From Eledone cirrhosa (lineage: Eukaryota): a stretch of DNA of 64,000 nucleotides. The notes below the pieces were generated by a model, which was given only the letters and a program-made list of their open reading frames with translations, was not told the origin of the DNA and made no database searches. Shown one piece after another: positions 7,710 to 32,964 of this stretch. Where the stretch lies: contig OZ024743.1 in the NCBI GenBank assembly GCA_964016885.1, forward strand, positions 197,656,001-197,720,000. The letters run 5' to 3'. Every line of letters begins with the position of its first letter. Positions within the stretch are counted from its first letter, which is position 1. Position numbers and translations under genes: made by a program.

Positions 7710-7807
7710 TGTATGCATGTATGTATGTATGTATGTATGTATGTATGTATGTATGTATGTATGTATGTATGTATGTATGTATGTATGTATGTATGTATGT
7801 ATGTATG
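7710..7807. repeat. (TATG)n microsatellite at the 3' junction of the R4-like stack
   Basis: Direct reading. Confidence 0.95.
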
Positions 7808-8265
7808 TTCTTCTGGTTTTATAATTTCACAAAGTTTTACCAATAGAGAGAGAGTCAGTTTCTAACATAGACACAAGACTCTCTCATTGGAATTTACACA
7901 ACATCAACTAGGTAGATATGTATGTATGTATGCATGCATGTGTAGATATGGATGTTATTGTGTGCATGTGTATATGCTTTGTATCTGTACATGTGTATAT
8001 GCAGTTATTAGATGCAACATTTTTGGAATGTTTTACATATTTTTACTGTTCCATTAATGGATTGTACTTGTAATTTCCTAACTAGTTGTGTTCTTTCTGT
8101 TCCTGTGAAGCCTAGCTTCTCAAGATTTGTATTGAGACAGTTACTAACATATTCCAGTGCCCCAATAATCACAGGCACAAATCTGAAGGTGTAATCAGGG
8201 TGGAGTATCTGCAGATTTCTCATCAGTTCTGCATAAATATTCTCCTTTTCACTAATCTTTGATAT
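7808..8265 (-). mobile_element. 5'-truncated 3' end of a second R4/Dong-like RLE family
   Basis: KISEKENIYAELMRNLQILHPDYTFRFVPVIIGA is homologous to but diverged from the C-terminus of 8350-8904. Its distinct 3' UTR ends ...agaagaa(cata)n. Confidence 0.85.
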
Positions 8266-11200
8266 ATGTTTTCTCTTTCTCTTAATTTCGGGTATATTTT
8301 TTTGACCGGCCACCTTCCTGGTGGCAAGGTTGTAAAAGAAAAGAAATTGTCATCCCTTGAATCGCAAGAATGTTTTGCAAATTTTGAAGGTGCCAGCTAT
8401 CGCAGCCATTTGTAGACTATGAATTAGGGAGCTGCGCTTTTTGTCCGCAAATCCAAGTTCAGTCATACTTTGGTCCAAGCGGGTTGGTATATAACCCGTA
8501 GCACCAATAATGATGGGTATGAAGCTAAAGGTGTATCTTGGATACTGGATTTGTAAATTCCTCATCAATGGTCCGTAGATGTCCTCCTTCTCCGGTATTT
8601 TTCTGACAACGTTTACATCAAGTGGGCAGCTGATCTCCACAACAGAACACGTTTTCAATGTGTGGTCCCAAACTACAATATCAGGCCGGTTGTGCTTTAA
8701 TTTGGTGGCAGTTTTTATTTTCAGGTTCCACCAGTATTCCTTAGTGACATCTGTCTCAATATATTCTTCCTCGTTTGTTGTTAATTTTGTTTTCCGAAGT
8801 GCGTTCCAGATGGTTCTAGCTATCCCATCGTGTCTCATGGGGAGGTAGTAGCGTACATTCTTTCGCAGCTGGTAGTAGGTACATTCTTTCGCAGCTGGCA
8901 ACAATGTGGCTTACATCCTCGATCTTTGTTTTACATAGCCTACATTTATTGTCAGCTGCTGGCTCTCCTCGTTTGTGCAGCAGATATTTGGTAGGGAGTT
9001 CTTGTTCCTGTATTGCACAGAGATATCCCTCAAGGTGTGATATCATAAACTTGTCGGAACTCCATGCCAGGCTTTTTGAGTGGTTTATCCCCTCTATGGT
9101 CTGTGTTTTACGCCTCAAGTATCCATGCACAACTTTTTCTGTAAATTGGTCAATTTTTTTATCTTGTTTGAACATTGAATAGGATCTTCCGATTTCTCTG
9201 GGTGAGAGATTTATATCAGGCTTTATTCCATATCTCTCCTCCAGATCAGTCGCTATTCTAATGATATTTCTTTTTTCATGCTCATAAACCTGGGCAAGAT
9301 GGTTGCCAACCTTTTTCCTCTGTTGAAGGTGTTGCTTCAGTGTTACTATCCGGGTCTCAAATGTTGTTAATATTGACTTTAGACCCCGGCCACCTTCCTT
9401 GCGTGAGAAGTATAGCCTATCCACATCACCATTGATGTTAAAGTTCCCAGTAACACTGAGAAGTTTTCGAGTTCTAACATCCATCTCACTTAGTTCTTGC
9501 AATGACCAGTTCAGTAGGCCAAATGTTGGCGTTAGAATTGGCACAGCATAAGTATTGTGGGCAATGTATTTGTTGTATGCTGACAGTTCTGATGACCATA
9601 TTTTCTTTACTCTTCTGAGGTATTCAGTTCTGGTTCTCTCCTTATTTATGGGTCCATCATATCTGACATTCTCATCCTGTCCAAGATATCTGTAGTTGTC
9701 ACCTGACTGCAGAGGTTGTATTGTCAGGCCGTTCATCTCTAGATTTCTGGAGGAGGGCACAGCTCTTCCACGTTTTACTGCCAAATATGCACACTTGGAC
9801 TCACCAAATTTCATTTTGATGTCGGTTGAAAATTGTGTAATGAGGTCCAATTGTTTCTTGATGTCATTGATATTTGGCCCATACAACTTCAGGTCATCAA
9901 CAAAGAAAAGATGGGAGATACTTCTGGGCCCACTTCTTTGTCCACCTTGTTTCCTAAGTAGGTAAGATAGTGGATTCAGTGAGAGAACGAAGAGTAGCAC
10001 TGACAAGCTATCACCCTGAAAGATGCCCTTCTGGTAATGTATCTTATCAGTCTTAACCTGCTCCTTCTCACCTCTAAGGATCAAATTGGTGTACCAGATC
10101 TTGGTCAGGCGTTCAACAGCAGCTACCAATGGTTGTGGGACTTTAGCTAACTGTAAAGCCTTAATAATCCACCCATGAGGTACACTATCAAATGCTTTTT
10201 GATAGTCCAGCCACACGACAGTCATGTTTCTGCGATTCTTTGTTGTTTTTTCCTGAATCATTTTGTTAGTTAGTAGGTGATCTATGCAACCCCACACCTC
10301 CCTCTTTCCACCAGCTTGCTCAGGTGTTATGATGTTGTTGGTAGCACAGTGATCCTGTAAGAACAGGTTAAGGCACCCAGTATATAATTTATACATGATG
10401 TTTTGGCAGGCAATTGGGCGGTAAGTTTTAGCAAGGGTGGTTTGGCTATTTTGGGGAATGAGGAGAGTAGTGGCATTTGATAACCATCTGGGCAGTTCTT
10501 GTGTGCCCTTAATGGTTTCTGTAAACAACCGTATGAGATCTTGCCGATAGAAAGTGAAATTCTTCAACCAGTATCCTGTAATGAGGTCTGGGCCTGGCGA
10601 TTTCCTATTCGACATTTTCTGTAGAGCTGTTTCCAGTATTGACCCATCTATGTCATATTGTTTTGTCTGAACATGTTGGCAGTAGTCCTGTTCCAGTTCT
10701 TTTAGCCAATTAGCTTGTCTGTTGAATCCGTCATCCGTTTCCCATACAGATCTCCAGTAGCTCTCAACCTGTTCTTTTGAACGGGTGTCGTTTACAGGGA
10801 TTGAGCTTTTGCCACCGAAGCTGCGATAAACTGATTTAGGATCTCTGGCAAACAATCTATTTAGCACTTGTCGTTTATGTGCTGTTGACTTATATTTTAG
10901 TCTTTCTGTTGTAGCTGTGAGTTGTTGTTTCAACTGGTGTAATTTGGAGTTCAAAGTTTTAAATTTTGTATCTACAAATCGTCTCTCTAACTTTTTCTTT
11001 AGGTCTTCCTGGTGTCGTGTGAAGTTGCTCTCTATGTTGCATTTCATAACGACTGCGATGTGTGAGATACTTCGTCTCAGGGACAAAATTTTGGTTTTTA
11101 AATTTCGCATCCACACTGGTTCAGGCTTTCTGTTTGTATCTTGATTGCATGGTTTTAGATGTGTGTTATATGATAGCAATGTGACAGCTGAAACATATAA

Positions 11201-11627
11201 CAAAACATTAAGCGTTTCAAATGTCGTTTCTACACCTTTAGATCGTATAGCCTTCAGATAATTGCCAGCTATTTCGTTCACCGCTTCCAATTCCAATTTA
11301 GTGGGTTCTTTACCGACTCTAGTGTTGTATGGTCTGTCACTCACATTAAGGCTGTGTATCTCTTGAAACATATCGTTCCATATCACTTGTAGGGTGCCCA
11401 CAAGTTTTTGGTGCTCTGTTTGTTCAGTAGAGTCATGAATTTCAACCTCGTTGTTGATGTGGTGACAATTACTACTAGAGTCAGCTGACCTTTCTCGCTG
11501 TTCTTCAGTGGAAGTGGGATGGATTTCAGCAAAATTGTTGGTGAGCTGTTCACTGTTAGATTTAGCTGGCCATTCTCTTTGTCTGTCAGTGGAGGTGGGG
11601 TGGTTGTCTACAAGGGCTGTATTTGTA
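8266..11627 (-). mobile_element. R4/Dong-like restriction-like-endonuclease non-LTR retrotransposon, 5' truncated
   Basis: RT followed by a CCHC knuckle and RHD/RPD/E..K endonuclease motifs. The 5' end abuts (CATA)n and the 3' UTR ends ...gaaaacata. Confidence 0.88.
8350..11401 (-). pseudogene. RT-RLE polyprotein with a frameshift at about 8853-8898
   Basis: DYQKAFDSVPH, GIFQGDSLS, FVDDLKLY, CRLC...HIVASC, then MRHD, NRPDIVV, EISCP in another frame. A 26-bp-period duplication lies at the break. Confidence 0.9.
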
Positions 11628-11707
11628 GTATGTATGTATGTATGTATGTATGTATGTATGTATGTATGTATGTATGTATGTATGTATGTATGTATGTATG
11701 TATGTAT

Positions 11708-12411
11708 GTGTCAGGTCACCAGTTGGTGCTACTGGTAACATGTATCCCAGTTTGTGTCAGGTCACCAGTTGGTGCTACTGGTAACATGTATCCCAGTTTG
11801 TGTCAGGTCACCAGTTGGTGCTACTGGTAACATGTATCCCAGTACAACCTGTCTCATGGTCGGGTCGTTGGCGACTAAACTGGCAACCCCACCAAGGTTT
11901 CTTGGTGAGGAGGGTGGCTTTGGACATCCTGCAGGACTAAAAACAAAACCTGTCAAAAGGCAAAGGGGCTCTTAAGAGTCAATAGCCATCCAAAATCACC
12001 GGGAGAGATGACCCCTTAGCCTTTGTCAAGGCAGAATTCTAGGAGAAGGAAAACTCTGATATAACACCTGCAACCCTGATGGTATCCAATGATGTTGAAT
12101 TGTTCTTCTTTTTGGTAAATATCATCTTGGTTAAGAGAGTGGGACTGGCTTTGTGCAGTGCCTTTGCTCACTATAAAAGCTTCACAGCACAGGCATTGCT
12201 TTATATCTGGAGATCTCTCTGCACTTGTCGTCACATGGTACCATGGGCCCAGCACTATGTGTCAATAATTGTCACAAGTGTAGTGTTTGTACCAGAGTTT
12301 TCAAGTCGTTGGCTGGACTAAAAAGTCACATTCGTTCAGCGCATTGGTAGGGGTTCTCCTACATGGATATAAAGTAGTGGCCGTACTCGAAAACGAGTTG
12401 GCAGCCACCAT
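11708..12411 (+). mobile_element. Non-autonomous bipartite RTE derivative, family A (46-bp 5' unit triplicated)
   Basis: RTE-type 5' UTR joined to the terminal zinc-finger codons and the RTE 3' tail. (TATG)n on both sides. Sister copy at 63088-63693. Confidence 0.85.
12243..12350 (+). CDS. Putative 35-aa single C2H2 zinc-finger micro-ORF (MGPALCVNNCHKCSVCTRVFKSLAGLKSHIRSAHW)
   Basis: Hand translation. accATGg start context. Homologous to the last RTE finger CRLCARHFRSLAGLKSHIRSQH. Translation is not shown. Confidence 0.4.
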   Translation: MGPALCVNNCHKCSVCTRVFKSLAGLKSHIRSAHW

Positions 12412-12447
12412 GTATGTATGTATGTATGTATGTATGTATGTATGTAT

Positions 12448-13617
12448 GTTTGTCTACCTGGGAAGCACTGTCAATCGATACAGAAACCTTGACAGTGAAA
12501 TCTCACTTAGGATTAGGAAAGCAAGTGATGCTTTCGGAAAGCTAGAAAGGCGACTCTGGGGTCGGCGAGACATATGCAGGAGGACAAAGGTAAAGGTGTA
12601 CAGGGCATGTGTGCTCTCTTGTCTTCTTTATGCCTACGAGACCTGGGTCACATATCGACACCACCTTAAGCAATTGGAGCGTTTCCATCAGATGTGTCTC
12701 AGACGGATCCATGGCATTCACTGGAGGGACCACATCAGTGATGTCGAGATTTTGGAAAGCTCTATGTGTGACAGTATAGAAGCTCTTGTGCTTAAGCAAC
12801 GACTCCGCTGGAGTGGTCACCTTGCCAGGATGAAGGATTCTAGAATACCAAAACAACTCTTTTATGGAGAGTTGGTTAAAGGAAAACGACCGCCACATAA
12901 ACCAAAAAAGAGGTATAAGGATTCCTTGAAAGCCTCTCTGAAAGACGCTAACATCTCTGCTGATACATGGGAGAATATTGCTGCTGATCGTAATAAATGG
13001 AGAAAGACTGTATATGAGGGAAAAGTTGCCTTGGAGGCATCTCGAATCGCATACGAGAAAGTAAAGCGGGATGTGAGGAAGGGCATTGCTGTTGCACTTC
13101 TAGACGGCGAGGGTCCTCCTATAGTGCTGACATGCAGCGTATGTGCGAGACTCTGCCTAAGCAAAGCTGGACTCGAAAGTCATCTTCGCAGTCATAAAGT
13201 AAGACCAGTGGTTGACTACCAGGCTGCTGTTGGAGATGCTACTCATCATGCTTGCCAAACATGTGGTAGGGAATGTAAATCAGCAGGAGGGCTCAAGCGA
13301 CATGCAAAAGTACACGAACTCCAACCATAGCCGACTATTCCCAGTAAATGTTTTGGTTGCCGACTCTGTGCAAGACATTTTAGATCATTGGCTGGGCTAA
13401 AAAGCCACATTCGATCGCAGCGCTGTTAGTTGCTATCGTGTGTGTGTGTGTAGATATGCTTATGTGTGTGCGTGTGTGTGTATATATATATATGTATATG
13501 TATATTATTATTGTTGTTGTCGTTATTATTATTGTTGTTATTATTATTATTATTATTATTATTGTTATTAATGTATGTGTGTGTGTGAGTATGTGTGTGT
13601 GTGTGTATATATGTATG

Positions 13618-13648
<31 letters not shown>

Positions 13649-13772
13649 TTCTTTTTTTTTTTATTTTTATTTTCTTTTTATTTATTTATTTATCATTATT
13701 ATTATTATTTTTTTTTTCTTTTCTTTCTCCTCGTGCAATGGCCATACTCGATAACGAGGGGGCAGCCATCAT
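12448..13772 (+). mobile_element. 5'-truncated copy of the RTE LINE
   Basis: Near-identical to 1961-3430 reverse-complemented. Premature stop at 13328-13330. (TATG)n at both ends. Confidence 0.95.
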
Positions 13773-13790
13773 GTATGTATGTATGTATGT

Positions 13791-14260
13791 TTCAAGTCGG
13801 GTCGTTGGTGACTAAACCGACAACCCCATCTAGCTAGCTTGGTGAGGAGGGTGATATTTGGACACCCCGCGGGATGAAATACAAGACCCGGCAAAGGGCA
13901 GAGGAACTCAGTAGAGTCTACGGCTATCCAAATAGTAGTTTTTTAAAATTATTTTTTAAAAAATTTTTATCACCTGGTAGTGAAATGCCCCCAGTTGTTG
14001 TCACAACACCTTTCTAGGGAAGCTCTGAAAAAAAAAACCCTTCGGCTTCGGAAGCATCCGATGATATTGACCAGTTCTCTCCTTTTCGGGTAATGTTTCG
14101 ATGCTGAGAGAGTGGATTGGTCGAGTGCATGGCCTTTCGCCCTTTAAAAAACATACAAAGTACAGGCATTGCTTGTGCAGGATATGTAGCCCAAAAGTGC
14201 ACCAAACTCTATAATCTGACAAGCGATTACAATACTCTTAGCAGAGTTTACTGCCATCAT
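13791..14260 (+). mobile_element. Bipartite RTE derivative, family B
   Basis: Shares leader hairpins, the gagagtggattgg...acaggcattgc block and a hairpin-gccatc(atgt)n tail with families A and D. Confidence 0.8.
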
Positions 14261-14340
14261 GTATGTATGTATGTATGTATGTATGTATGTATGTATGTAT
14301 GTATGTATGTATGTATGTATGTATGTATGTATGTATGTAT

Positions 14341-14626
14341 GTCACTCTGATATAAAACCTGCAACTCCGTTGGCAACGAATGATGTAGACCAGTTCTTCT
14401 TTTTGTGTAAATGTATCCGAGGTTCAGAGAGTGGGTTTGGCCTTGTGCAAAGTCCTTCCTCACTTAAAAAGCTCCAGGCACAGACATCACTTGATATGTG
14501 ACATTGTTTGTAATACATGGAATGGCTGGCCATATGCATGTCCCTAGCAGGACTAAAAAACATGTCCTTGATGCTCATGGTTAAGTATCAAGCGATGGAA
14601 TTAAACAAAACGAGTTGCAGCCATTA
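14341..14626 (+). mobile_element. Bipartite RTE derivative, family C, 5' truncated
   Basis: ctctgatataaaacctgc...gagagtgggtttgg block, decayed SLAGLK..H..AH finger, aacgagttgcagccat tail. Confidence 0.75.
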
Positions 14627-14675: not shown

Positions 14676-14867
14676 GGGGTGTGTGCGACCCCCCCAAGGC
14701 GCCTCTTCTCTATTGAGGACTTTGTTATAAATTTTATTTTTTGTTATATTTTATTTTATTTTTATATATTGTTATTGCCTCCTCCTTATTGAGGACGCCT
14801 TGTTTTGTAAACTCCCCCCATTGTACTTGTCCCACTTTTGATGCCCTGGTGGCAAATAAAAGAAACA

Positions 14868-14943: not shown

Positions 14944-14956
14944 GAAGGAAGGAAAA

Positions 14957-16720
14957 ATGAAAATAAAAACGGACGAATCTGCGGAGGAAAAATTAAATGA
15001 CGAAAACAACGAAAAAAAAAAATTTGAAAAATTGCATGACAATACTAATAACACAAACAAAGACACAACAAACAAAAAAATAACAGTTGAAAATAACATC
15101 ATATCAGAAAACAAAGCAGACGACAAGATTTCTTTTGCACAGAAAACAAAGAAATCTTTGACTTATATAGCGGAAAACATTTCAGATGTGGTACGAAGGA
15201 TCACGGACGCAAAACAATACATAAGTGAAGGTGAGAATGGTATTTTATTGGTAAAAATGCCTCAAGAATTCACGAAAGACATTGAAAGCCGAACGGTCAA
15301 GTTTCGGACCATCAACAACAGTACAAAAAAACCTGAACAGCCTTCTCAAGCAGATATCAAAACAGTACTCGCAGAAGTACTGAATGAAACAACTTTCATA
15401 AGAAAAGACAGACTGTATGGAAGCCTAGCAATTATCATGAAGAACGAATCGGCGGCAAAAAAATGTGCTTTGTCACCGATTCGTTCGAAAAATTTCACCT
15501 TTTATCCATCTTATATGGGAAAAAAAACTCAACGCATATGGCTGGATGCAATGATGCCAGATGTGGACTACTGCTGGCTCATAGCTGGCTTCATCGATCC
15601 AGTGAATGACAACGTGATTTCCATTGGGAAAACCACAGGCAATGCGTTCAGTGGAACAGGTATAGAGCTGGTAGTACAAATGAAGCCTGAACGCATCGCC
15701 CAAATACCCGACAGAATCCTATTAGAGGACCACGGGTATATAAACATTAGCGTGGAGGGGAGAAGGCCGTCCTGCCATATCTGTGCAGGCAGAGGGCACC
15801 TGAAGGCCGCTTGTCCACAACTCAACAAAAAGAAAACTCTGCTACCAACACCAGCTCCACCACCACCACCACAACAGATAAACAAACAACAAAACTCAGT
15901 CCCACCCAACCCGTCCCTCAGTAACACCACAACACCACCACAACACAAACAGTCACAACACATTACCCCAAAACAAAATACAGGCCCACCCAACCTCTCA
16001 CTCAATAAAACAACACAACCACCGCAGACACAACACACAACACAGTCTAACATAGTGACATCCATCTCCCCCACAAAGAAAACCAACACGGAAACATTAC
16101 CAGCAAACATACCTCTTCCCTCCAACACTGAAGATAACCCAACGAATTCGGAGGAAGAAACGGAGTCCTTCAGACAGATTAAAAGGAAAAAAAGAAAACA
16201 TGTGCAAAACACACAAGGACAAACAACCCCCACCCAAATCGCAACACAATCTAACAAAACAGAAAACACCCCTCCAGCAACAAACAAAACCAAACCTGCC
16301 CCTCCCCTCTTCGAAACACTCACACCATCGGAAAAAAAGACATTACACTATACTTACATCAACAGAAACAATAATAAATTAAATGAACTCATATACAATA
16401 ATCCTTCGGTACAAACCGAAGGTGTAAACTTTGTTTCATCAGAAAACCACCCACATTTAAAACTAATAAAAATCCCAATGAACCTCTACCAAAAACTAAA
16501 AAAGGATTTTAAGGAGGACGTAGGACCACCCTCTGTCAAACCCATAAACCGCGTCCTACTAAAAAGCTTTCCCCCTCCCCTTCCCCTCCCCAACACAACT
16601 CCAAACACCCCAACCCCACCACACACCGACGACCCCACACCACCACAAGACACCCCTTCACCCAACACCCCCGACCCCATGGAAGTCGTGCAACCCGAAC
16701 CCCGGGAAGCGGAAAGGTAG
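14957..16720 (+). CDS. Tx1-like ORF1 (gag-like, CCHC knuckle, Pro/Thr/Gln-rich linker)
   Basis: CHICAGRGHLKAAC knuckle. The upstream extension to 14741 in the ORF track is microsatellite read-through. Confidence 0.85.
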   Translation: MKIKTDESAEEKLNDENNEKKKFEKLHDNTNNTNKDTTNKKITVENNIISENKADDKISFAQKTKKSLTYIAENISDVVRRITDAKQYISEGENGILLVKMPQEFTKDIESRTVKFRTINNSTKKPEQPSQADIKTVLAEVLNETTFIRKDRLYGSLAIIMKNESAAKKCALSPIRSKNFTFYPSYMGKKTQRIWLDAMMPDVDYCWLIAGFIDPVNDNVISIGKTTGNAFSGTGIELVVQMKPERIAQIPDRILLEDHGYINISVEGRRPSCHICAGRGHLKAACPQLNKKKTLLPTPAPPPPPQQINKQQNSVPPNPSLSNTTTPPQHKQSQHITPKQNTGPPNLSLNKTTQPPQTQHTTQSNIVTSISPTKKTNTETLPANIPLPSNTEDNPTNSEEETESFRQIKRKKRKHVQNTQGQTTPTQIATQSNKTENTPPATNKTKPAPPLFETLTPSEKKTLHYTYINRNNNKLNELIYNNPSVQTEGVNFVSSENHPHLKLIKIPMNLYQKLKKDFKEDVGPPSVKPINRVLLKSFPPPLPLPNTTPNTPTPPHTDDPTPPQDTPSPNTPDPMEVVQPEPREAER

Positions 16721-16753
16721 GTCTCTACACTCTCCTTTGGCTCTGCCGCCCAC

Positions 16754-19700
16754 ATGGATGTGTTAAGAGTAGGATGTTTGAATGCACGTGGCCTGGGCTC
16801 AACTTGGAAGCAAGCAAAGCTTCTAAATGACCTCAGGTCATGTAGTATAAATGTAATGGTTATCTGTGAGACTCGAATCAGCGTCATGCGGCAGCTGGCC
16901 CCCACCTTCGATGACTTTGAGGTGCATGCATCTCTCTGTCAACCTGGAGGTGGGGGTGGGGTTGTCGTGCTGCTGCAAAAACACCTGGGTCTTGCCGTAC
17001 AGGTTGTGCACTCGGACCCGGAGGGTCGTTTGTTGGTGCTAGACGTTGGCAGTAGTGAAAGTGCGGCCTTGAGACTGGTCGCCGTCTACTCCCCTTTCGG
17101 AGCTGAACGGCCCGACTTCTTCCAGCGTTTGGAGACTTTTCTGGGAACGTCGCGTTCCCTGCTTCTAGCGGGGGATTGGAATGACATCCTGGATGCACGT
17201 TGGGACTATGCAGGAGCATGTCCTAATAGAGGGGGGTGTAACAGCCTCAAGGGGTTACTCGACCGTTTTAACTTGGTCGATAGATATCGACTAGATTTTC
17301 CAACTGTGCCTACCTGGACTTGGAGAAACCACAGTGGTCAATCTAGATCGTACTTAGATAGATTCTTAGTTAGAAGTAAGGATAGGGACATATTAAGCTG
17401 TCCAGAAATGCGCACGGTTGGCTACACGGATCACAAATTAGTGACCTGCGTGGTCAATCTCGAGAAAACACATAGACAGGGTCCCGGTTACTGGAAACTT
17501 AATTTGTCTTTACCGGCAAAAGAGACTTACAGAAACCGGATTAGCAGATTAGTTAAGGAGAGGTTGACGGGTGCAATCGTCAACAACCGATGGTGGGCAT
17601 CTCTCAAAAGAGAGATTAGAACAGAATCAATAAGTTATAGCAAGATGTTAGCTGCCAATAGGAATAGAAACGAGAAAGAATTAACAGGTAAATTAGAAGA
17701 GGCAATCAAGAGCGAAGATGTGGCCAGAGTGCTGGCATCGAGGACGGCCTTGAACCAGTTTTTCGATGCAAAGCATGAAGGCTGCGTCATTCGAAGTAAA
17801 ATACGTGCTCTAGGTAATGAGGGGGCCAAAGCCGTTGGATGGGCCCGCGTGACAGAAGCTAAAAGTGGAAATCGATCCACCATCCGGTCGTTGCAAGACG
17901 AAGATGGACGAGTGATCCGGGAGCCTAAGCAGATGTGCGAGGCCTTTCAAAAGCACTTTGCCCGATTGTTCGGGGGAGGCGAGGGTCCGGGCCGGGGCGT
18001 GGATTTCGGTCCATACCTCGACGGCCTGCCGCGTCTCTCGAACAAAGAGGCAGAGTCCTGCGAGGGACCAATCTCGGCTGATGAGATCGGAGATGCGCTG
18101 AGCCAATGCAGCAGACGCAAATCTCCAGGTCTCGATGGTATACCTTACGAACTTTATTTAGCAATGCCGGTCTTCTTCTCTGAACTCCTCGAAGCGGTCT
18201 ACTGCAATTGGCAGCAGAACGGGAGAATTCCTTGTTCTGTAGCCAAGGGCGTAGTCACGCTGGTGAGGAAGGACGAGAACAAGGGGGATAGTATAAATAA
18301 TTTTCGGCCCATAACCCTGCTAAACACAGAGTTAAAGATTTTGGCCAAGGTGTTAGCAAAGAGGTTGGCGCTTGTCGTGGGCGGCCTGGTGGGAGATGCG
18401 CAGACATGTGCTATCCCATCCAGGTCCATTCACGATAACCTCCACCTCATGCGATACATCATAGAGAGGGTTGGCAACAAACCCGGCTTCGGTGGGGCCC
18501 TGATCAACTTGGATCAGTCTAAGGCCTTCGATAGGGTCGACCATGGTTACCTGGATGCGGTGCTAGCGGCGGCTGGGTTCGGTCCTGTTTTCAGAGGCTG
18601 GATCACTGCCCTACATAGCAACCACATCTGTTCTAGGATCAAGGTGAACGGCTACCTTTCGAAGCCGTTCGAAATCACACGATCCATTCGACAGGGGTGC
18701 CCTCTCTCCTCCCTTCTGTACGTATTGACTCTCGAGCCTTTACTGAGGAAGTTGGAGTTGTTGCAGGGTATCCCCCTGGAACCAGGATTGAGCAAAGCGG
18801 TGTCGGCCTACGCCGATGACGTAACAGTAATGGTATCAACCGACTCGGAGATCGAGGCGATCGGTACCTTACTGGAGGAGTACGAAAGGTTGTCAGGAGC
18901 GAAACTGAACCGGGAAAAATCCATCGGACTGCAACTCGGAACGTGGAGAAGCAAACCGATGCCTCCTGACGGTGTCGTCGGACACTGGACGGAGGGCCCG
19001 GTAAAGTTGCTTGGGGTCTGGTTTGGACCGGACCTCCAGGTGGAAAAGAACTGGAACGAGGTTACGAACAAGGTGTTTGCACTAACCCAGAAATGGGCCA
19101 AGTGTAAGCTGTCCCTAAAAGGCCGGGCGGAGGTGGCGAACATTTACATAGCGTCCGTCACTTACTACCGCCTGACTGTCGTGCCTTGCCCTAAGGAAAC
19201 ACTCACCACCATGGAACGCATGCTCTTCCAATTTCTTTGGAAGAAGCGTCCTCCTATGGTGAGAAGATCCATCTGCTGCCAACAACCTTCGAAAGGAGGG
19301 CTGGGGATGCCGTGGTTGATGATGCGTAGGCACGCATTAAGGCTACGGCACCTACAGGTATTCCTCACTGGTCAACCGGTGTGGGCTCCGTTCGTGAAAC
19401 GAGCCTTTCCGAGACTCGTCTCACTCACCGAGCTACAGTCCTGGGTCAAGCAAAGATCCGGAAAACTGGGAGACTGGCACACTGAGTGTGCTCAGGCGCT
19501 CAGGGCTCTCTGGCAAGCGGGCCGGACCATCGGTGGAGAATCCACCTCATCATTCTATAGAGGGCTGGTGGCTAGCAGGGGCGATGACACCCTTGGAGAG
19601 TCGCTGGACATGGAAGAAGACGAACTGGCCAGCCTGTTCGGTAGGACTTTCGGCCCAGGACCAATGGACAACTTCCAGAAGTCACTGGCCTGGCAGTGCT

Positions 19701-19972
19701 ACCGAGGGGCTCTACCCGTTCGAGAGAGGCTCTACAGACACGGGCGCCCGGGCAGGGATCCCTCAAAAAAGATTTGCCCTAGATGCGTGCGTCACGAAGA
19801 AACCGTGGCGCACGCATTGGTGCAATGTCCGGGCGTGGCTGATCTGTGGGGCTACGCCGAACAACTGCTGTCGCGGGTGGCGCCGATTAAATTGACCGCC
19901 GAGTCCGTGATGACAATCAAACCGCCCCCCCCCTCTTCACAAAGGAAGCAAAGGCGGTTTTTCTGTGCGTAA
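16754..19972 (+). CDS. Tx1-like ORF2: APE + RT + CCHC; last ~80 aa (to 20193) are out of frame
   Basis: LNARGL, ICETR, GDWN, YLDRFL, TDHK; DQSKAFD, RQGCPLS, YADD; CPRC...HALVQC. PGYWKLN is typical of L1/Tx1. Confidence 0.93.
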   Translation: MDVLRVGCLNARGLGSTWKQAKLLNDLRSCSINVMVICETRISVMRQLAPTFDDFEVHASLCQPGGGGGVVVLLQKHLGLAVQVVHSDPEGRLLVLDVGSSESAALRLVAVYSPFGAERPDFFQRLETFLGTSRSLLLAGDWNDILDARWDYAGACPNRGGCNSLKGLLDRFNLVDRYRLDFPTVPTWTWRNHSGQSRSYLDRFLVRSKDRDILSCPEMRTVGYTDHKLVTCVVNLEKTHRQGPGYWKLNLSLPAKETYRNRISRLVKERLTGAIVNNRWWASLKREIRTESISYSKMLAANRNRNEKELTGKLEEAIKSEDVARVLASRTALNQFFDAKHEGCVIRSKIRALGNEGAKAVGWARVTEAKSGNRSTIRSLQDEDGRVIREPKQMCEAFQKHFARLFGGGEGPGRGVDFGPYLDGLPRLSNKEAESCEGPISADEIGDALSQCSRRKSPGLDGIPYELYLAMPVFFSELLEAVYCNWQQNGRIPCSVAKGVVTLVRKDENKGDSINNFRPITLLNTELKILAKVLAKRLALVVGGLVGDAQTCAIPSRSIHDNLHLMRYIIERVGNKPGFGGALINLDQSKAFDRVDHGYLDAVLAAAGFGPVFRGWITALHSNHICSRIKVNGYLSKPFEITRSIRQGCPLSSLLYVLTLEPLLRKLELLQGIPLEPGLSKAVSAYADDVTVMVSTDSEIEAIGTLLEEYERLSGAKLNREKSIGLQLGTWRSKPMPPDGVVGHWTEGPVKLLGVWFGPDLQVEKNWNEVTNKVFALTQKWAKCKLSLKGRAEVANIYIASVTYYRLTVVPCPKETLTTMERMLFQFLWKKRPPMVRRSICCQQPSKGGLGMPWLMMRRHALRLRHLQVFLTGQPVWAPFVKRAFPRLVSLTELQSWVKQRSGKLGDWHTECAQALRALWQAGRTIGGESTSSFYRGLVASRGDDTLGESLDMEEDELASLFGRTFGPGPMDNFQKSLAWQCYRGALPVRERLYRHGRPGRDPSKKICPRCVRHEETVAHALVQCPGVADLWGYAEQLLSRVAPIKLTAESVMTIKPPPPSSQRKQRRFFCA

Positions 19973-23400: not shown

Positions 23401-26118
23401 ATTAGAAGAGGCAATCAAGAGCGAAGATGTGGCCAGAGTGCTGGCATCGAGGACGGCCTTGAACCAGTTTTTCGATGCAAAGCACGAAGGCTGCGTCATT
23501 CGAAGTAAAATACATGCTCTAGGTAATGAGGGGGCCAAAGCCGTTGGATGGGCCCGCGTGACAGAAGCTAAGAGTGGAAATCGATCCACCATCCGGTCGT
23601 TGCAAGACGAAGATGGACGGGTGATCCGGGAGCCTAAGCAGATGTGCGAGGCCTTTCAAAGGCACTTTGCCCGATTGTTCGGGGGAGGCGAGGGTCCGGG
23701 CGGGGGCGTGGATTTCGGTCCATACCTCGACGACCTGCCGCGTCTCTCGAACGAAGAGGCAGAGTCCTGCGAGGGACCAATCTCGGCTGATGAGATCGGA
23801 GATGCGCTGAGCCAATGCAGCAGACGCAAATCTCCAGGTCTCGATGGTATACCTTACGAACTTTATTTAGCAATGCCGGTCTTCTTCTCCGAACCCCTCG
23901 AAGCGGTCTACTGCAATTGGCAGCAGAACGGGAGAATTCCTTGTTCTGTAGCCAAGGGCGTAGTCACGCTGGTGAGGAAGGACGAGAACAAGGGGGATAG
24001 TATAAATAATTTTCGGCCCATACCCTGCTAAACACAGAGTTAAAGATTTTGGCCAAGGTGTTAGCAAAGAGGTTGGCGCTTGTCGTGGGTGGCCTGGTGG
24101 GAGATGTGCAGACATGTGCTATCCCATCCAGGTCCATTCACGATAACCTCCACCTCATGCGATACATCATAGAGAGGGTTGGCAACAAACCAGGCTTCGG
24201 TGGGGCCCTGATCAACTTGGATCAGTCTAAGGCCTTCGATAGGGTCGACCATGGTTACCTGGATGCGGTGCTAGCGGCGGCTGGGTTCGGTCCTGTTTTC
24301 AGAGGCTGGATCACTGCCCTACATAGCAACCACATCTGTTCTAGGATCAAGGTGAACGGCTACCTTTCGAAGCCGTTCGAAATCACACGATCCATTCGAC
24401 AGGGGTGCCCTCTCTCCTCCCTTCTGTACGTATTGACTCTCGAGCCTTTACTGAGGAAGTTGGAGTTGTTGCAGGGTATCCCCCTGGAACCAGGATTGAG
24501 CAAAGCGGTGTCGGCCTACGCCGATGACGTAACAGTAATGGTATCAACCGACTCGGAGATCGAGGCGATCGGTACCTTACTGGAGGAGTACGAAAGGTTG
24601 TCAGGAGCGAAACTGAACCGGGAAAATTCCATCGGGCTGCAACTCGGAACGTGGAGAGGCAGACCGATGCCTCCTGACGGTGTCGTCGGACACTGGACGG
24701 AGGGCCCGGTAAAGTTGCTTGGGGTCTGGTTTGGACCGGACCTCCAGGTGGAAAAGAACTGGAACGAGGTTACGAACAAGGTGTTTGCACTAACCCAGAA
24801 ATGGGCCAAGTGTAAGCTGTCCCTAAAAGGCCGGGCGGAGGTGGCGAACATTTACATAGCGTCCGTCACTTACTACCGCCTGACTGTCGTGCCTTGCCCT
24901 AAGGAAACACTCACCACCATGGAACGCATGCTCTTCCAATTTCTTTGGAAGAAGCGTCCTCCTATGGTGAGAAGATCCATCTGCTGCCAACAACCTTCGA
25001 AAGGAGGGCTGGGGATGCCGTGGTTGATGATGCGTAGGCACGCATTAAGGCTACGGCACCTACAGGTATTCCTCACTGGTCAACCGGTGTGGGCTCCGTT
25101 CGTGAAACGAGCCTTTCCGAGACTCGTCTCGCTCACCGAGCTACAGTCCTGGGTCAAGCAAAGATCCGGAAAACTGGGAGACTGGCACACTGAGTGTGCT
25201 CAGGCGCTCAGGGCTCTCTGGCAAGCGGGCCAGGCCATCGGTGGAGAATCCACCTCATCATTCTATAGAGGGCTGGTGGCTAGCAGGGGCGATGACACCC
25301 TTGGAGAGTCGCTGGACATGGAAGAAGACGAACTGGCCAGCCTGTTCGGTAGGACTTTCGGCCTAGGACCAATGGACAACTTCCAGAAGTCACTGGCCTG
25401 GCAGTGCTACCGGGGGGCTCTACCCGTTAAAGAGAGGCTCTACAGACACGGGCGCCCGGGCAGGGATCCCTCAAAAAAGATTTGCCCTAGATGCGTGCGT
25501 CACGAAGAAACCGTTGCGCACGCATTGGTGCAATGTCCGGGCGTGGCTGATCTGTGGGGCTACGCCGAACGACTGCTGTCGCGGGTGGCGCTGATTAAAT
25601 TGACCGCCGAGTCCGTGATGACAATCAAACCGCCCCCCCCCCCCTCTTCACAAAGGAAGCAAAGGCGGTTTTTCTGTGCGTAATAGCCATGTTGAAAGAG
25701 GTTGTTTGGTGGACACGATTGAAAGGTCTGAGGTCAGGCAACTTCCTCTCTGGCCATAGTCTGGTCTACTTCTTCCGATATCACTTCGGAAGAAGGATAA
25801 GAATGGAGAGAGAGGTGCTTGGCCACAGGCAGTTTTATGAAAGGTGGGTGATAGTGGCGAGAATGGCTCGTGTAAATGGGCCTTCTCTGTATACCATCCT
25901 GTAGGTAAAGAAGTGAAGGAGAGGGGAGCACCTTCTCCATGTGCTCCCCGGGCAAAGGATTGCACACTTTTTCGGGGGTGTGTGCAACCCCCATCACGTC
26001 CCCTCCCTTTTGAGGCTATTTTCGATTATTTTCATGTTACACCCTTTTTACTTGATTATATGTAAACTCCCCCTTTGTATTTGTCCCTTCTTTTTATGCC
26101 TTTATGGTAAATAAAGAA

Positions 26119-26172: not shown

Positions 26173-26179
26173 ATATCTG

Positions 26180-26234
<55 letters not shown>

Positions 26235-29200
26235 CGGATTCTGTCTAACACGTGGAAAACGTGGTTGTGAGTAAATGTTTTAATTTCATTGGAAATTGCA
26301 TGAACTGAATCTACATTCTTACATCATTTTGTAGATAAGCTGCCACCTACACTTTGGCCATTTTGGCTATAGTCAAAATTCCGGTAGAAATTTTGTGGGA
26401 TTTCTCCCTTTTTCGCCCTGATGTGCTTATTATTTGGGGTTGCTACCACCTACACTTTGTAGGTGGTAGCAACCCCAAATAATAAGCACATCAGGGCGAA
26501 AAAGGGAGAAATCCCACAAAATTTCTACCGGAATTTTGACTATAGCCAAAATGGCCAAATTCTTTGACCACATCTTCTCAAAAAACACATCAGAGAATTG
26601 TGGGGTTGGGCTGTTAATCTCACCTTCCACAGTACTAACAACAACAGCAACAAAAACAACAACAACATCAAAACTGTCAGCCAACAATTAGACAGAGGTG
26701 GTGGAGGGACGGTAAAAGTGTCAAGCCAAGAAGCAGCTCGCACCGCCTCATTGAAACACTTCGATATGTTTAAAACACACCCTGACAACAACACCAGCAC
26801 CACCAACACGAAAACTGTGAATGGCACAAACCAAAACAACGCCATCAACAACAACAGTGACAACGAGAACAAGAATAACAACGACAACAAAACCACAACC
26901 AACAACAACAACACCAACAACGAAAAAAACGAAAACAACATCAACAATAAGAACAATAATAACAACAACAAGACCAATAACTGCAACAAGGAAGTAAACA
27001 ACAAAATATTTGCGCAAACCGTAAAGAAAACGGTAAGCTACACTCCGGTAGATATTTCAAATGCAAATGAGCTTTTGAATAACGCCAGACAATATGTAAC
27101 TTTTGGGGAGAACGGATCATTGTCCATAAACTCTCCCCCAGATTTGCGAAGAGAAGCTGCCTTGAAAACTGTGATTTTCAGGACAATCTCAAACAAAACA
27201 CGAAAACCGACTCAACTTTCACAAGGCGAAATTGAGTTGGCTTTAAAAAATGCCTTAAAAGACATTGCTTTTATTCAGAAGGGTAGACTCTACGGGAGTT
27301 TATCCATTCTAATGAAAGACCAGAAATATTCTGTCGCCAATTGTGTCAACGCTGTTCACCCTTTTCACCACTTACATGGGGAAAAGAATACAGAAGTAAA
27401 AATCCAAAGTATCACACCAAATATTGATATTTGGTGGGTACTATGTGGATTTTTAAACCATGAAACAGACTATATAATATCGGTAGGTAAGTCCTCCGGC
27501 GACCTGTTCAGCGGAATTAGCCTGGAACTTCTGGTCCAAATGACACCAGAACGAATAGCTAGGATCCCGGAACGTGTGTTGCTGGATGGACTTATATATA
27601 TAAACATTTCGGTCGAAGGTAGGCGTCCCTCATGTTACCACTGCTCAAGCAGGGGTCACCTGAGAGCTTCCTGTCCTCGACTAACTAGCCCCCCAAAAAA
27701 GCACTACTGCCAACACCTACAACACCAGCACAACAATCACCACCACCACAACAACAACATAAAAAATAAATAGTGACAACAAAACAAACGACAAACACAG
27801 TCCCACCCAACCCTCCCCACCTAAACAAATTCCAAAAACACCCACACACATAACAACACCCCAAAATGTACCCCTCTCCAACAATACGGATGAGGCCTCA
27901 TCATCGCCACCCAGTGACGATGAGGGAGAGCCTTTCCGACCAGTAAAAAGAAAAAAAAAAAGACATAACACAAACAAAAATGCAACAAACACACAAACAC
28001 CAACACAAGCGACGCAAACACCACAAACAAAAACACCCCCTCCTGAAAACAAAACACCTGCTACAAAACGTAAACACACACAAGAACCACAGACAAAAAG
28101 CAACCCAACACAACAAAAATGTTACACCTACATAAATACTAACAATAAAGCTTTAACAGACACCATATATAAAAACCCTTTACACACTCTTCGGAGAATC
28201 CTAATCTTAAAATGATTAGGACCTCCATGGACACACATAAACAGTTAAAAGAAAAATTTCCTAATGAAGTAGGTAACCTCTGCGTCAAACACTACAATCG
28301 AGTCCTGTTAAAATGTTTATCCAGCCCCATCCCCATCACACCAGACACCCCCTCCCCACCAAACATCTCTGTCCCCACCCCTCCAGAGACCACTACCCTA
28401 ACAAACAACCCCTCCAACACCCCCATGGAAATTGTGCAGCCTGGTCCCCAGGAGATGAAGAGGTGAGTGTTTTCTTTTCCTCTTCTTTTAACTTCTCAGC
28501 ACCCACATGGCCAATATAAGGGTTGGATGTGTGAATGTACGCGGCCAGGGGATGCCCTGGAAACAGGGCAAACTCTTAAACGACCTCAGGTCGGACAGTA
28601 TGGATGTAGTAGCCATTTGCAAGTCCAGGATCCACAGCGAGCAACAACTGGCCCCCATCTTCGACGACTTTGAGATCTACGCATCTCTCTGTCAGCCGGG
28701 AGGTGGGGGTGTGGTTGCCGTTTTGCTGCGGAAACAGCTGGACCTCGTAACACAGACGGTACATCTGGACCCGGAGGGTCGACTGGTGGTCCTAGACGTT
28801 GACGGTAGTGAAGGTAGAGCCTTCAGGCTGGTGGCCGCATATGCCCCATTCGGGACACCGCGGCCAGACTTCTTCAAACGTCTAGAGACTTTTCTGGGAA
28901 CGCCCCGCTCCCTGCTGTTAGTGGGGGACTGGAATGGAATCGTAGATGCACGTTGGGATTATGTGGGAGCATGTCCCGATAGAGGGGGTGTAACAGCCTC
29001 AAACAGTTAATCGGCCGATTTGACCTGGCCGATAGATATCGACTAAATTATCATACTGTGCCATTGTGAACGTGGACTAATCGCAGTGGAACATCTAGAT
29101 CGTACCTAGATAGGGTTCTAGTTAGAAAGATGGATAGGGACATGTTGAGCTGTCCACAAATGTTCATGGTTGCATATTCAGATCACAACTTAGTGACCTG

Positions 29201-32010
29201 CTTAGTCAACCTTGACAAAACCAATAGACAGGGAACCAGCTACTGGAAGCTGAACTTATCGTTACCGACATGCAAAGCCTACAGTAGACGGATTAGAACT
29301 TTAGTTGAGCAGCACTTGACGGGGGACATTGTCAACAACAGATGGTGCTACTCTCTCAAGAGGGCAGTTAGATTAGACTATATAGGTTTTAGTAAAGAAT
29401 TAGTGTTAGATAGAAATAAGACCGAAAAATATCTGATAGATAAAGTAGAAGAGGCAGTTAGGAGTGCAACGTAGCCAGCGTGCTAGCGACGAGAACGGCC
29501 TTGGACCAGTTCTTCGACGCAAAGCACGAAGGCTGCGTTGTCAGAAGCAAAATACGTGCTCTGGGAAACGAGGGAGCCAAAGCTGTTAGCTGGGCCCGAG
29601 TGATGGAGGCGAAAAGTGGCAACAAGTCTACGATTCGGTCTTTGAAGGACCAAGACGGATGCGTGATACGTGAGCCGAAGCAGATGTGTGCGGCCTTTCA
29701 ACGACCCTTTGCTCAACTGTTCGGGCAGGGCGGCGCCCGGGAGGGGCTATGGATTTCGGTTCATACCTCGACGGCCTACCGCGACTCTCGGACAGCGAGG
29801 CGAAGTTCTGCGGAAGGCCGATTTCGGCCGCGGAGATCGGGGACGCGCTGAGCCAATGCGGCAAACGCAAATCTCCAGGTCTCGACGGTCTACCCTACGA
29901 ATTTTACGTAGCAATGCCGGACATATTCTCCGGTCTCCTGGAAGCGGTCTAGGGCGTAATCACGTTAGTCAGGAAGGATGAGAACAAGGGGGATGACATA
30001 GGCAACTTCCGGCCCATAACCCTGCTCAACATAGAATTACAGATTTTGGCCAAGGTGTTGCAAAGAGGTTGGCGTTTGTCGTCGAAAACCTGGTGGGAGA
30101 AGCGCAGACATGCGCAATCCAGACCAGGTCCATATACGCCAACCTCCACCTCATGCGATACATCATAGAGAGGGTAGAGTGTAAACCCGGCTTCGGTGGG
30201 GCCCTGATTGATTTGGATCAGTCTAAGGCTTTCGATAGGGTTGACCATCGTTATCTGGATGCGGTGCTCGAGGCGGCAGGCTTCAGACCCGTGTTCAGGG
30301 GCTGGATTGCTGCATTGTACAGCAGCAACATCTGCTCAAGGGTCAAGGTGAACGGCTACCTCTCGGAGCCGTTCCATATCACGCGATCTATCCGACAGGG
30401 ATGCCCTCTCTGTACGTACTGACTCTCGAGTCACTACTGCGGAAGTTGGAGCTATTGCAGAGCATCCCTTTGGAACTGGGACTGCGAAAAGCAGCGTCGG
30501 CCTACGCCGACGACGTGACAGTAATGGAGTCGAGCACCTCGCAAATCAGGGAGATCGGCACCTTACTGGAGGAATACGAAAGGTTCAAAGGAGCGAAGCT
30601 GAACCGGGACAAATCCGTCATTTTGAAACTCGGAACGTGGAGAGGCAGACCGATGCCTTCCGATGACGTCGTCGGACGCTGGACGGAAGGACCGGTAAAG
30701 CTGCTCGGAGTCTGGTTTGGTCCGGACTTCCAGGTGAAGAAGAACTGGAACGAGGTGACGGCCAAGGTGTTTGCGCTCACCCAGAAGTGGGCTGAGGAGT
30801 GCAAACTATCCTTGAAAGGTCGAACGGAGGTGGCGAACACTTTTATAGCGTCCGTCATCTACTACCGCTTGACCGTCGTGCCTTGTCCAGCCAAAATGCT
30901 CACCAAAATGGAGCGCGCGCTCTTCCAATTCCTTTGGAAGAAACGGACTCCTTTGGTGTCATCTACTGCCAACACCCTTCAAACGGAGGGTTGGGGATGC
31001 CGTGGCTGACGATGCGCAAACACGCGCTTAGGCTGCGGCACCTCCACGTATTCCTCACCAGACAACCGGTGTGCGCCCGTTCGTGAGGCGAGCCTTCCCA
31101 CGACTCGTCTCGCTGACCGAGCTGCAGTCCTGGGTCAAGCAAAAACCGAGGAAAATGAGCGACTGGCACATCGAATGTGCTCAGGCGCTCACAGTCCTCT
31201 GGCAAACGGACCCGGCGATCAGTGGAGACTCAAATTCGACAGTCTATAGAGGGTTGGTCCGCAGCAAGTGCGACAACACGCTCGGAAAAACTCTAGGCGT
31301 AGAGGAGGACGAACTGGCCAGTCTGTTCGGTAGGACCTTCCACCCGGGACCAATGGACAACTTCCAAAAGTCCCTGGCCTGGCAGTGCTACCGAGGAGCT
31401 CTACCAGTTCGAGACAAGCTCTACAGACACGAGATGCGTGCGTAACGAAGAAACCGTCGCACACGCATTTGTACACTGCCCGGTCGTTACCAACCTGTGG
31501 GGCTATGTAGAACGACTATTGTCGCGGGTGGGACCAATCCAGTTGACCACCGAGTCCATTGTCCTGATCAAACCGCCACCCTCCTTCAAAAACGAGGGTG
31601 AGGCGGTTTTCCTATGTGTTATGGCTATGGTGAAAGAGGTTATATGGTGGACGAGGTTAAATGGGCTGAGGTCAGACACCTTTCTCTCCGGCGAGCAACT
31701 GATTCGTTTTTTCAAATATCATTTTGGAAGAAGAATCAGGATGGAGAGAGAGGTGATGTACCCCAGCAAATTTTATAAAAGGTGGGTGAATGTGGCAAAG
31801 ATGGCCCGAGTGGTTGGGCCTTCTCTCTATATAAGCCTGTAGGTTGAGGAAAAAGAGGAAGAGAGGAAAGGAGTACTCACTCTTGGTGCTCCTGGAGATG
31901 AGGTTTGTTATTTGTTATTGTATTAATAGTTTTATTTTCATATACCTGTATGTAAACTCCCCATTTGTATTTGTCCCCTTCTTTGTGCCCTTGTGGCTAA
32001 TAAATAAATT
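26235..32010 (+). mobile_element. Tx1-like LINE copy 3, diverged subfamily, decayed
   Basis: ORF1 CYHCSSRGHLRASC. ORF2 is fragmented over 28507-31842 with the same motifs. Ends aataaataaat(ttatc/tatc)n. Confidence 0.92.
26353..26559. repeat. Perfect 102-bp-arm palindrome with 3-nt loop
   Basis: 26353-26454 is the exact reverse complement of 26458-26559. Confidence 0.95.
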
Positions 32011-32125
32011 TATCTATCTATCTATCTATTATTAATTTTTTATTTTCATATACCTGTATGTAAACTCCCCATTTGTATTTGTCCCCTTCTGTTGTGCCCT
32101 TGTGGCTAATAAAGAAATTTATCTG

Positions 32126-32158
<33 letters not shown>

Positions 32159-32964
32159 ATTTATTCCTTTCTATCTACCTATCTTTATACCAATGAGCGA
32201 ATGAGCGAATTAATGAGTGTGTCTGCGCGTGTGTGTATGTGCGTGTCTGCATAAGCGGTTATGTCTGTATGCAAATGCATCTATCCACCATTGGTATACG
32301 TATGTAACAATAAACGATATTTTATGTCAAGCGTTAAAGCAAAGAAACCACGTGACAAAATTAAGACAAGGGAGCAAATGAGTCTCAAATATCAAATAGG
32401 CTTTGAAATTTACAAAGAAACAAAGATAAATGATAAAAAATAGATATAGGAAAGGGACTAGAAAGAAGAGAGGGAGTATCAAACTGTAGGATGTGAAAAA
32501 TTGGAAGATATGAGGTTAAAACGTGAGAGAGGGAGAGCGGGAAAAAAGAATAAAAAGATATAACTGGAAAGACGAGGGAGGATAATGAAAAAAGAAATGG
32601 GTGAAAAAAAAAAAAAATGAAGACAACAGAAACATAGAGTGTGCAGTTTAGATTGATTATCTGATACGTAGAACGACATATGTAAGAACACATACACACA
32701 TAGATACATACACACACACACACTCAAACACTCATACATATACACACATGCATACACACACACAAAAGCACACACACACACATATATATGTATGTATAAA
32801 TATATATATGATATATACATTCATATATATATATATAATATATATATATATATGTGTGTGTGTGTGCGTGCGAATTAGATATTAAGTCAGTTAACCAAGA
32901 TAGGTAGATAGAAATAGATATGCATCCGTGTTTGTGTGTGTGTATATATATATATGTATGTATG

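Follow-up and report, generated by a model that had tools for sequence, protein, structure and literature searches.

We analysed a 64,000-nucleotide stretch of the genome of the octopod Eledone cirrhosa (GenBank assembly GCA_964016885.1, contig OZ024743.1, positions 197,656,001 to 197,720,000 of the forward strand), which we call the window and number from its first letter. It is part of a 379-Mb contig in a 3.0-Gb genome, and is AT- and microsatellite-rich. An earlier annotation made from the letters alone (the original prediction) held that about 24 kb of it is a nest of retroelements split by tetranucleotide tracts, each clade occupying its own simple repeat. Sequence inspection bore out the nest itself: 7708-32184 consists only of retroelements with tetranucleotide tracts between them (Table 1). 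The pattern is real and genome-wide, and the partition of microsatellites runs by family, not by clade.

Reading from the left, the nest begins with the foreseen ‘R4-like pair’, two different minus-strand families, B and A, with only ACATA between them. The window copy of family A, whose best named relative is from Argonauta hians (56%, protein), has lost its open frame to a 26-bp tandem duplication (8844-8898). The plus-strand RTE copy and derivatives that follow start and mostly end in (TATG)n, as anticipated, with D3 almost abutting a TATC tract; D1 is 99% identical to its best genome copies, and the 3' untranslated region (UTR) of the truncated RTE holds a GT/TA/TTA/T microsatellite cassette at about 13438-13725. 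The four Tx1-like units all lie in (TATC)n, again as claimed. They fall into three subfamilies with TATC spacers of (TATC)19, 17 and 29. The unit at 14944..20407 is 99.5% identical to a full-length genome copy, has a frame shift in a C-run near 19925, and ends in AATAAAGAA without poly(A), and the last Tx1 3' end of the nest carries a 108-bp tandem duplication. At its 5' end the older unit has a near-perfect 207-bp inverted repeat (26353-26559), possibly reflecting inversion during integration; a parallel is locus L420, where a Tx1 3' piece sits inverted beside a TATC tract.

Clade names follow domain layout and not phylogenetic trees. The RTE elements have a single open reading frame (ORF) with apurinic/apyrimidinic endonuclease (APE) and reverse transcriptase (RT) domains, no ORF1, a microsatellite-rich 3' end and derivatives sharing both ends; against PDB, their protein matched only distant L1 and R2 structures. 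The Tx1-like elements combine an ORF1 CCHC knuckle with an APE-RT-zinc finger ORF2 (APE catalytic residues identified by eye), a layout shared by L1-group elements, and a protein search gave one distant match named Transposon TX1 (26%). The R4-like elements show the R4/Dong layout of RT, CCHC, RHD and a PD..D/E..K restriction-like endonuclease (RLE) without APE, which is common to all RLE clades. No named Kibi, Koshi, Dong or HERO reference came from homologue searches, PDB or Atlas.

Table 1. Retroelements and repeat tracts of the nest, followed by features elsewhere in the window.
Feature	Position	Strand	Remarks
(TATG)25 tract	7708..7808	.	Left edge of nest
R4-like family B, 3' fragment	7809..8264	-	End of RLE ORF and 3' UTR; internal CATA-like run 7917-7941
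R4-like family A, 5'-truncated	8270..11623	-	RT, CCHC, RHD, PD..E..K restriction-like endonuclease
(TATG)21 tract	11624..11709	.	Head-to-head junction of R4-A and RTE derivative D1
Non-autonomous RTE derivative D1	11708..12409	+	About 610 bp; 46-bp head triplicated in window copy
5'-truncated autonomous RTE	12448..13770	+	RT C-terminus, C2H2 fingers; preceded by (ATGT)10
RTE derivative D2	13791..14258	+	Flanked by (ATGT)5 and (ATGT)21; 77% to D1 head
RTE derivative D3 fragment	14343..14625	+	Stops 5 nt short of first TATC tract
Tx1-like 3' fragment, third subfamily	14676..14867	+	Flanked by (TCTA)11 and (TATC)19
Tx1-like unit	14944..20407	+	About 330 nt of 5' UTR absent; ORF1 CCHC knuckle, ORF2 APE-RT-zinc finger
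Tx1-like unit	about 20495..26118	+	5' end complete, frames broken; flanked by (ATCT)17 and (ATCT)29
Older Tx1-like subfamily	26235..32010	+	Decayed; 75% DNA identity
(TATC)4, second Tx1 3' end copy and final degenerate TATC tract	32011..32184	+	Copy at 32030-32119
Long autonomous RTE copy	1963..6548	-	Outside nest; both ends in (TATG)n, sense strand
Penelope-like 3' part	45330..46122	+	Outside nest; GIY-YIG motif by eye; bounded by (TA)n
Old Expander/RTE-like 3' fragment	49700..50084	+	Outside nest; followed by (GAA)13; tail-like; ‘Expander’ is the name used in the original prediction
Sister Tx1 family fragment	61425..62250	-	Outside nest; relatives end in (ATT)n

Genome background was taken from 40 stretches of 10 kb (400 kb) at round-number positions. 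Per strand, 12-mers of TA make up 4.7% of this sample, CATA and TATG 0.36% each, and TATC and GATA 0.054% each; microsatellites account for about 8% of its 12-mers. A junction was assigned to a repeat if a repeat 12-mer with at most one mismatch lay at most 8 nt away. The background by this rule is 6.2% for TA, 0.68% for CATA, 0.66% for TATG, 0.14% for AAT and 0.11% for TATC, rates that are conservative because tracts adjoining elements are counted in them. For each family we scored the best 30-40 of 162-7019 candidates, with 5' junctions read on copies picked by 3' end or by whole length. Left out were 7/31 RTE rows (in five an internal tract interrupts the 5' UTR, one has an internal deletion and one reaches past the end of the stretch), 6/29 R4-A and 19/28 R4-C rows whose 5' end lay at or past the locus edge, 4/20 ATT-type Tx1 5' ends in tandem arrays and, for the tally of neighbour orientation, four non-oriented loci; a short interspersed nuclear element (SINE) embedded in the reference was masked.

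In these sampled copies the 5' junctions are not random. Among TATC-type Tx1 copies picked by their 3' end, 17/27 5' junctions lie in TATC, three in TA and seven are unclassified, several of these being irregular TATC, while 3' flanks are TATC in 23/27. An element has been considered microsatellite-specific when more than 20% of its flanks carry one target at both ends (PMC4494074; here and below, papers are cited for part of their text), and the TATC-type Tx1 lies above this value. When full-length copies were instead picked by 5' end (29 outside the window, with a query that may slightly favour such copies), TATC stood just upstream in 29/29 by eye, and beyond the tract 16 of the 29 had no recognised element. 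Tx1 3' ends were AATAAAGAA without poly(A) in 29/29. R4-A truncation points lie in CATA in 19/23 copies at scattered positions, and R4-B (1708 first-look candidates) gave 13/18 by rule and two more by eye (15/20). The 24 resolved junctions of autonomous RTE comprise 13 in TATG, four in TA, four in irregular TATG-containing sequence and three in unique sequence; the 29 of D1 comprise 16 in TATG, 12 in TA and one other, so that 21/24 and 28/29, respectively, are in or beside TATG/TA-type tracts. Truncation points vary from copy to copy, and therefore the tracts are not part of the element. Except for D1 in TA (7-fold), the family/repeat pairs are enriched about 80-570 fold over background. The repeats are thus targets and not mere tails, as predicted, and enrichment exceeds repeat abundance for Tx1, R4-A, R4-B, RTE and D1, although not for the Expander-like element in GAA.

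The predicted orientation-polarised arrays were equally evident. Across a shared tract, RTE and R4 neighbours point in opposite directions in 16/16 cases and neighbours of the same lineage point the same way in 60/61; among scored copies, none showed an RTE end in CATA sense or an R4 end in TATG sense. Nests inside one repeat type are common, with about a third to half of focal copies having an abutting neighbour. Because TATC-type Tx1 adjoins RTE or R4 on only 1/58 sides, the side-by-side TATG and TATC nests of the window are an unusual local coincidence. Separately, we observed two head-to-tail arrays with 5.4-5.8 kb spacing and TATC spacers (G000:C1:22191510-22214332 and C1:348917493-348929543), the ends checked being Tx1.

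One repeat per clade, as first proposed, does not describe these families. Relatives of the sister Tx1 fragment in the window run on as ATCATTAT or ATCAGTATT in 15 of the 18 with a visible 3' end. The endonucleases of this ATT-type family and the TATC type are 58% identical and differ at a segment that, in our own reading, aligns to the beta-B6/B5 hairpin loop, which has a described role in the endonuclease (PMC1950540). The R4-like elements include a young (99%) RLE family absent from the window, R4-C, found via an insertion in an RTE 3' UTR; it has (AAT)n at 28/28 3' ends and 9/9 truncation points (three of the nine by eye). Its protein identity to R4-A and R4-B is 33% and roughly 25-43%. 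R4-C and ATT-type Tx1 stand tail to tail on opposite strands in 7/7 cases (five by eye), and therefore a second opposite-strand pair of APE and RLE elements exists. Insertion into one repeat, a feature of R4/Dong, is present in all three R4-like families (A and B in CATA, C in AAT). Niche partitioning accordingly survives as a split of families among repeats but fails by clade: Tx1 uses TATC and ATT, R4-like elements CATA and AAT, and RTE TATG and TA, where RTE and Penelope-like elements (PLEs) share (TA)n.

Several observations accompany these families. R4-C is found at L147:2312-2712 (-) and L387-L415 (869 first-look candidates), with an open 597-aa C-terminal frame in L388. L139, L345 and L397 each show the 5' end of an element that begins in (ATT)n, in the opposite orientation to R4-C. 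The sister Tx1 often adjoins the ATT-rich end of a tRNA-type SINE (L272-L290, L331-L350), and its copy at L338 duplicated 17-18 nt of a site that contains just one or two ATT units. R4-B junctions at L314 and L319 contain 20-35 nt of C/A-rich, apparently non-templated filler between target and element. The long RTE copy of the window encloses an open 1171-aa frame (2448-5963, minus strand) with APE, RT and C2H2 fingers and is a candidate active copy; in other copies the full RTE 5' UTR includes a SINE-derived piece. D1-D1 dimers with an internal (ATGT)2-3 spacer occur at L106, L107, L113 and L115, three of which share variants, which suggests that the dimers transpose as a unit.

Irregular tracts offered a view of how targets are processed. 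Identical irregular bases flank both sides of 6/12 informative Tx1 copies, versus 9.9% of shuffled pairs, and six Tx1 copies have duplications of 18, 19, 19, 19, 22 and 22 nt, with two others at 13 and 15 nt. Long target duplication is a feature of the Tx1 clade, that of Xenopus Tx1L being about 23 nt. The Tx1 copy at L161 occupies a site without a TATC unit, where only AT was added. Odd tracts of 10-13 nt are duplicated at D1 copies L095, L109, L110, L118 and L132, and D1 3' flanks start with ATGT in 15/29 and ATAT in 14/29, mostly as in the 5' tract. No fixed element-encoded repeat tail was seen for Tx1 and RTE, whose 3' flanks vary with the target, though R4 may have a short tail. The claim that each tail remakes its own target therefore fails for Tx1 and RTE, whose 3' flanks mostly copy a pre-existing tract.

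We approached the same question from the tracts, listing the first long (TATC)8+ tracts of contig C1, 20 in all, two of which belong to an array of five. At nine, BLAST identified a Tx1 that adjoins the tract in the expected direction, in five cases only at the 5' junction; one further tract probably has a Tx1 and one has an inverted Tx1 piece. Contrary to tracts being made by tails, only 4/20 follow a Tx1 3' end. These counts imply that most TATC tracts were there beforehand as targets, and that about half are occupied. Reads examined for empty-site alleles (four runs each at L025 and L338) gave no joint spanning either insertion, which favours neither tail nor target, since repeats were skipped and the other individuals were RAD-seq (restriction-site-associated DNA sequencing).

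We consider it probable that the nest is a pile of non-long-terminal-repeat insertions, each family entering one microsatellite in one orientation, likely via a repeat-specific endonuclease nick and duplication of the tract. The family-specific repeat and fixed direction likely arise because every family has an endonuclease that nicks a single strand of its repeat. The nick would fall at a TpA step, on the CATA or TA strand for RTE, the TATG strand for R4-A and R4-B and the GATA strand for Tx1. Target-primed reverse transcription would then start at the last unique base of the element, probably aided by a few read-through RNA repeat bases pairing with the nicked strand. Part of the tract would end up duplicated on both sides, as in Tx1 (mostly 18-22 nt) and a subset of RTE copies (10-13 nt), and each half could regrow by slippage, so that one target becomes two and can be entered again. 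A second route to new targets is provided by the TA, ATT and GT tracts carried as cargo in RTE UTRs, which we find taken by other families.

A number of points weigh against this account. The junction tallies rest on the best copies of each family, and some loci are tandem or duplicated, so copies are not independent. Nick positions are predicted from sequence junctions, which are ambiguous within repeats. Of the Tx1 5' junctions, 7/27 fit no repeat class and three are TA; Tx1 copies L003, L025 and L170 have TATC, and R4-B copies L319, L325 and L328 their repeat, on the 3' side only. D1 duplications are only modestly above the null (10/22 versus 28%), and R4 duplications are not established (5/20 versus a 17% null; 2/9 versus 2.6%). 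ATT-type Tx1 begins in (ATT)n in just 4/16 resolved copies, all four full length, and its 12 truncated copies mostly do not; its targeting is therefore looser.

An alternative that accommodates some of these points is that nicking at TpA is loose and the repeat at the 3' end of the transcript picks a matching tract by pairing and is partly copied, so that the tail sets the target of daughter copies. Pairing of RTE 3' repeats with the target has been proposed (PMC6007223). RNA guidance would fit the lack of poly(A) in Tx1 despite an AATAAA only 3 nt from its end, and the restriction of the repeat to the 3' side in three copies each of Tx1 and R4-B. The 3' junctions of L161, L155, L022 and L338 carry 2-10 nt of canonical family repeat not found in the target, rather than duplicated target, which points to a short RNA-derived overlap. 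However, 3' flanks track the local tract even where it has no canonical unit (L161, L095, L109, L132), and D1 sub-lineages are unsorted by target (3 ATGT/2 ATAT in one, 0-1/3-4 in another, with weak power), no heritable target preference being visible among the 29 D1 copies. Additionally, swapping the endonuclease transferred specificity from SART1 to TRAS1 (PMC7265360). We regard RNA guidance as doubtful.

It is less likely still that targeting is loose and copies gather in microsatellites as harmless sites, or are drawn there by repeat-rich chromatin or breaks. The genome is microsatellite-rich, unique DNA holds a minority of the junctions, and such gathering was suggested near CA repeats for Drosophila Waldo-A/B (PMC3812793). 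Yet TA is about 90 times commoner than TATC and Tx1 is nonetheless in TATC, passive gathering cannot yield a unit- and strand-specific pattern, and the Expander-like control lacks a 5' bias. Young copies are already patterned: many scored copies are 98-99.7% identical, leaving little time for sorting by selection. Strand polarity largely refutes this explanation. Finally, that the repeats are tails only, with nests built by tandem duplication, unequal crossing-over between tails or misassembly, fits the duplicated last Tx1 3' end (32030-32119), one C1 array with equal 5835-bp spacing and the Expander-like family, but is very improbable given that nest units come from different families and subfamilies with differing truncation points, that solo copies carry the repeat at the 5' truncation point, that the 5' TATC tract of 16/29 full-length Tx1 has no recognised element upstream, that 16/20 long TATC tracts have no Tx1 end before them, and that loose read ends from another individual are TATC at two truncation points.

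Returning to endonuclease-mediated insertion into pre-existing tracts, we find that the real seeding is cross-family, via tracts carried in RTE UTRs. GT/TA/TTA/T tracts occupy about 300 bp of the 3' UTR of the autonomous RTE, and its 5' UTR contains similar ones. A later insertion sits in the 3' cassette of 7/29 RTE copies outside the window (a tRNA-type SINE, two Tx1-like pieces, D1, R4-C and two without a family name); two R4-C copies also sit in an RTE 3' cassette, and ends of ATT-type Tx1 interrupt the 5' UTR of two RTE copies.

The PLEs and the Expander-like fragment lie outside the nest. PLE 3' boundaries are TA in 23/29. The prediction that the PLEs of the window sit in (TA)n holds for two pieces, while the ends of a third (53.1-55.9 kb) did not resolve. 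Decayed PLEs occur at 53108-55889 (-) and 56660-59787 (-), and relatives of the latter are often truncated in (TA)n (6/12 by rule, more by eye). The Expander-like end does abut (GAA)13, as stated, but GAA was rejected as an insertion target: 0/12 Expander-like truncation points were in (GAA)n by eye and one was in TA, these being old copies (71-88% identity) whose flanks are possibly decayed. The (GAA)n looks like a plain tail, and GAA is the sole repeat among those considered without a TpA step. Elsewhere, short hairpin-forming elements bounded by (TA)n (43879-44079, 733-880 and 33752-33812) are frequent genome-wide; four or five copies of a tRNA-type SINE lie in tandem at 60529-61388, with short AAT runs between them; and at L041, L045, L051, L097, L162 and L426 a repeat ending TACACAATCATACACAC abuts TA, TATC or TATG tracts later used by Tx1 or D1.

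Taken more broadly, and as a tentative proposal that we hold with less than even confidence, the octopod genome may house a self-organising retroelement community, at least seven families strong, whose members split TpA microsatellites by unit and strand. In a shared repeat the sense strand of APE elements would be the T-rich one and that of RLE elements the A-rich one, the target-specific RTE would act as niche builder by sowing TA/ATT tracts from its UTRs, and sister Tx1 families would have switched between TATC and ATT. Transposon hotspots in octopods have been described as possible niches with no cause given in the part cited (PMC13282606); our analysis offers a sequence-level cause for them and for the close link between long interspersed nuclear elements and microsatellites in octopod genomes. 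It casts an RTE family as microsatellite targeter, not only microsatellite maker. The two Tx1 families, and the R4-like families on CATA versus AAT, are natural pairs for the long-standing question of whether target choice is governed by the endonuclease or by the 3' end of the RNA. In this group, these elements also confound the use of microsatellite markers and the calling of insertions from reads.

Much of this has precedent. Microsatellite-specific Tx1, Dong and Waldo/Mino, the PLE bias to TA, opposite-strand TRAS/SART and RTE 3'-repeat pairing are already known, and the niche idea was raised for nimaviruses (PMC10871703). A literature search whose scope lay outside Repbase/Dfam, supplements and most subscription papers found no report of TATC-targeting Tx1, CATA-targeting R4, microsatellite-targeting RTE or a cephalopod partition; the families may already be catalogued elsewhere.

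Like the GIY-YIG Neptune/Naiad PLEs, biased to (TA)n (PMC8557442), the PLEs here are bounded by (TA)n and present nothing new. The Tx1-like families resemble the microsatellite-specific Kibi (TC)n, Koshi (TTC)n and crocodilian (TTCC)n/(TTTC)n Tx1 families, two-ORF APE-RT elements with both ends in one microsatellite (PMC4494074). They are likened by layout, and differ in their targets, (TATC)n and, in the sister family, (ATT)n, both with TpA, as well as in their mollusc-like host and in forming head-to-tail arrays of several subfamilies. Dong-R4 elements are abundant in octopods (PMC13282606, PMC8967140), and HERO can also target microsatellites (PMC4640811). Dong, an R4-clade element of (TAA)n with RT followed by CCHC and a restriction-like endonuclease (PMC3812793), is matched by R4-C, whose (AAT)n is the same repeat, whereas families A and B use (CATA)n, for which we found no R4 report. 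Lepidopteran RTEs, RTE-2_OV and Bov-B share the APE-RT ORF, the microsatellite-rich 3' UTR, bipartite non-autonomous derivatives and duplications of about 10-12 nt (PMC2887409, PMC9115989, PMC6007223). In the lepidopteran type the repeat is newly made between the duplications; in our families it is instead the target that forms the terminal repeat, which is also found where copies are 5'-truncated, and the 3' flank tracks the local tract. Waldo (ACAY)n and Mino (AC)n are likewise microsatellite-specific APE elements of alternating purine-pyrimidine repeats (PMC3812793), but belong to the R1 clade of insects; (ACAY)n includes ACAT, a repeat thus known as target for another clade. A parallel to the shared tracts is TRAS/SART, two families that enter the Bombyx (TTAGG)n repeat in opposite directions (PMC7265360). 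Those are both APE elements at telomeres, whereas here APE is set against RLE in dispersed microsatellites, and the opposite-strand sharing occurs twice, in TATG/CATA and in ATT/AAT.

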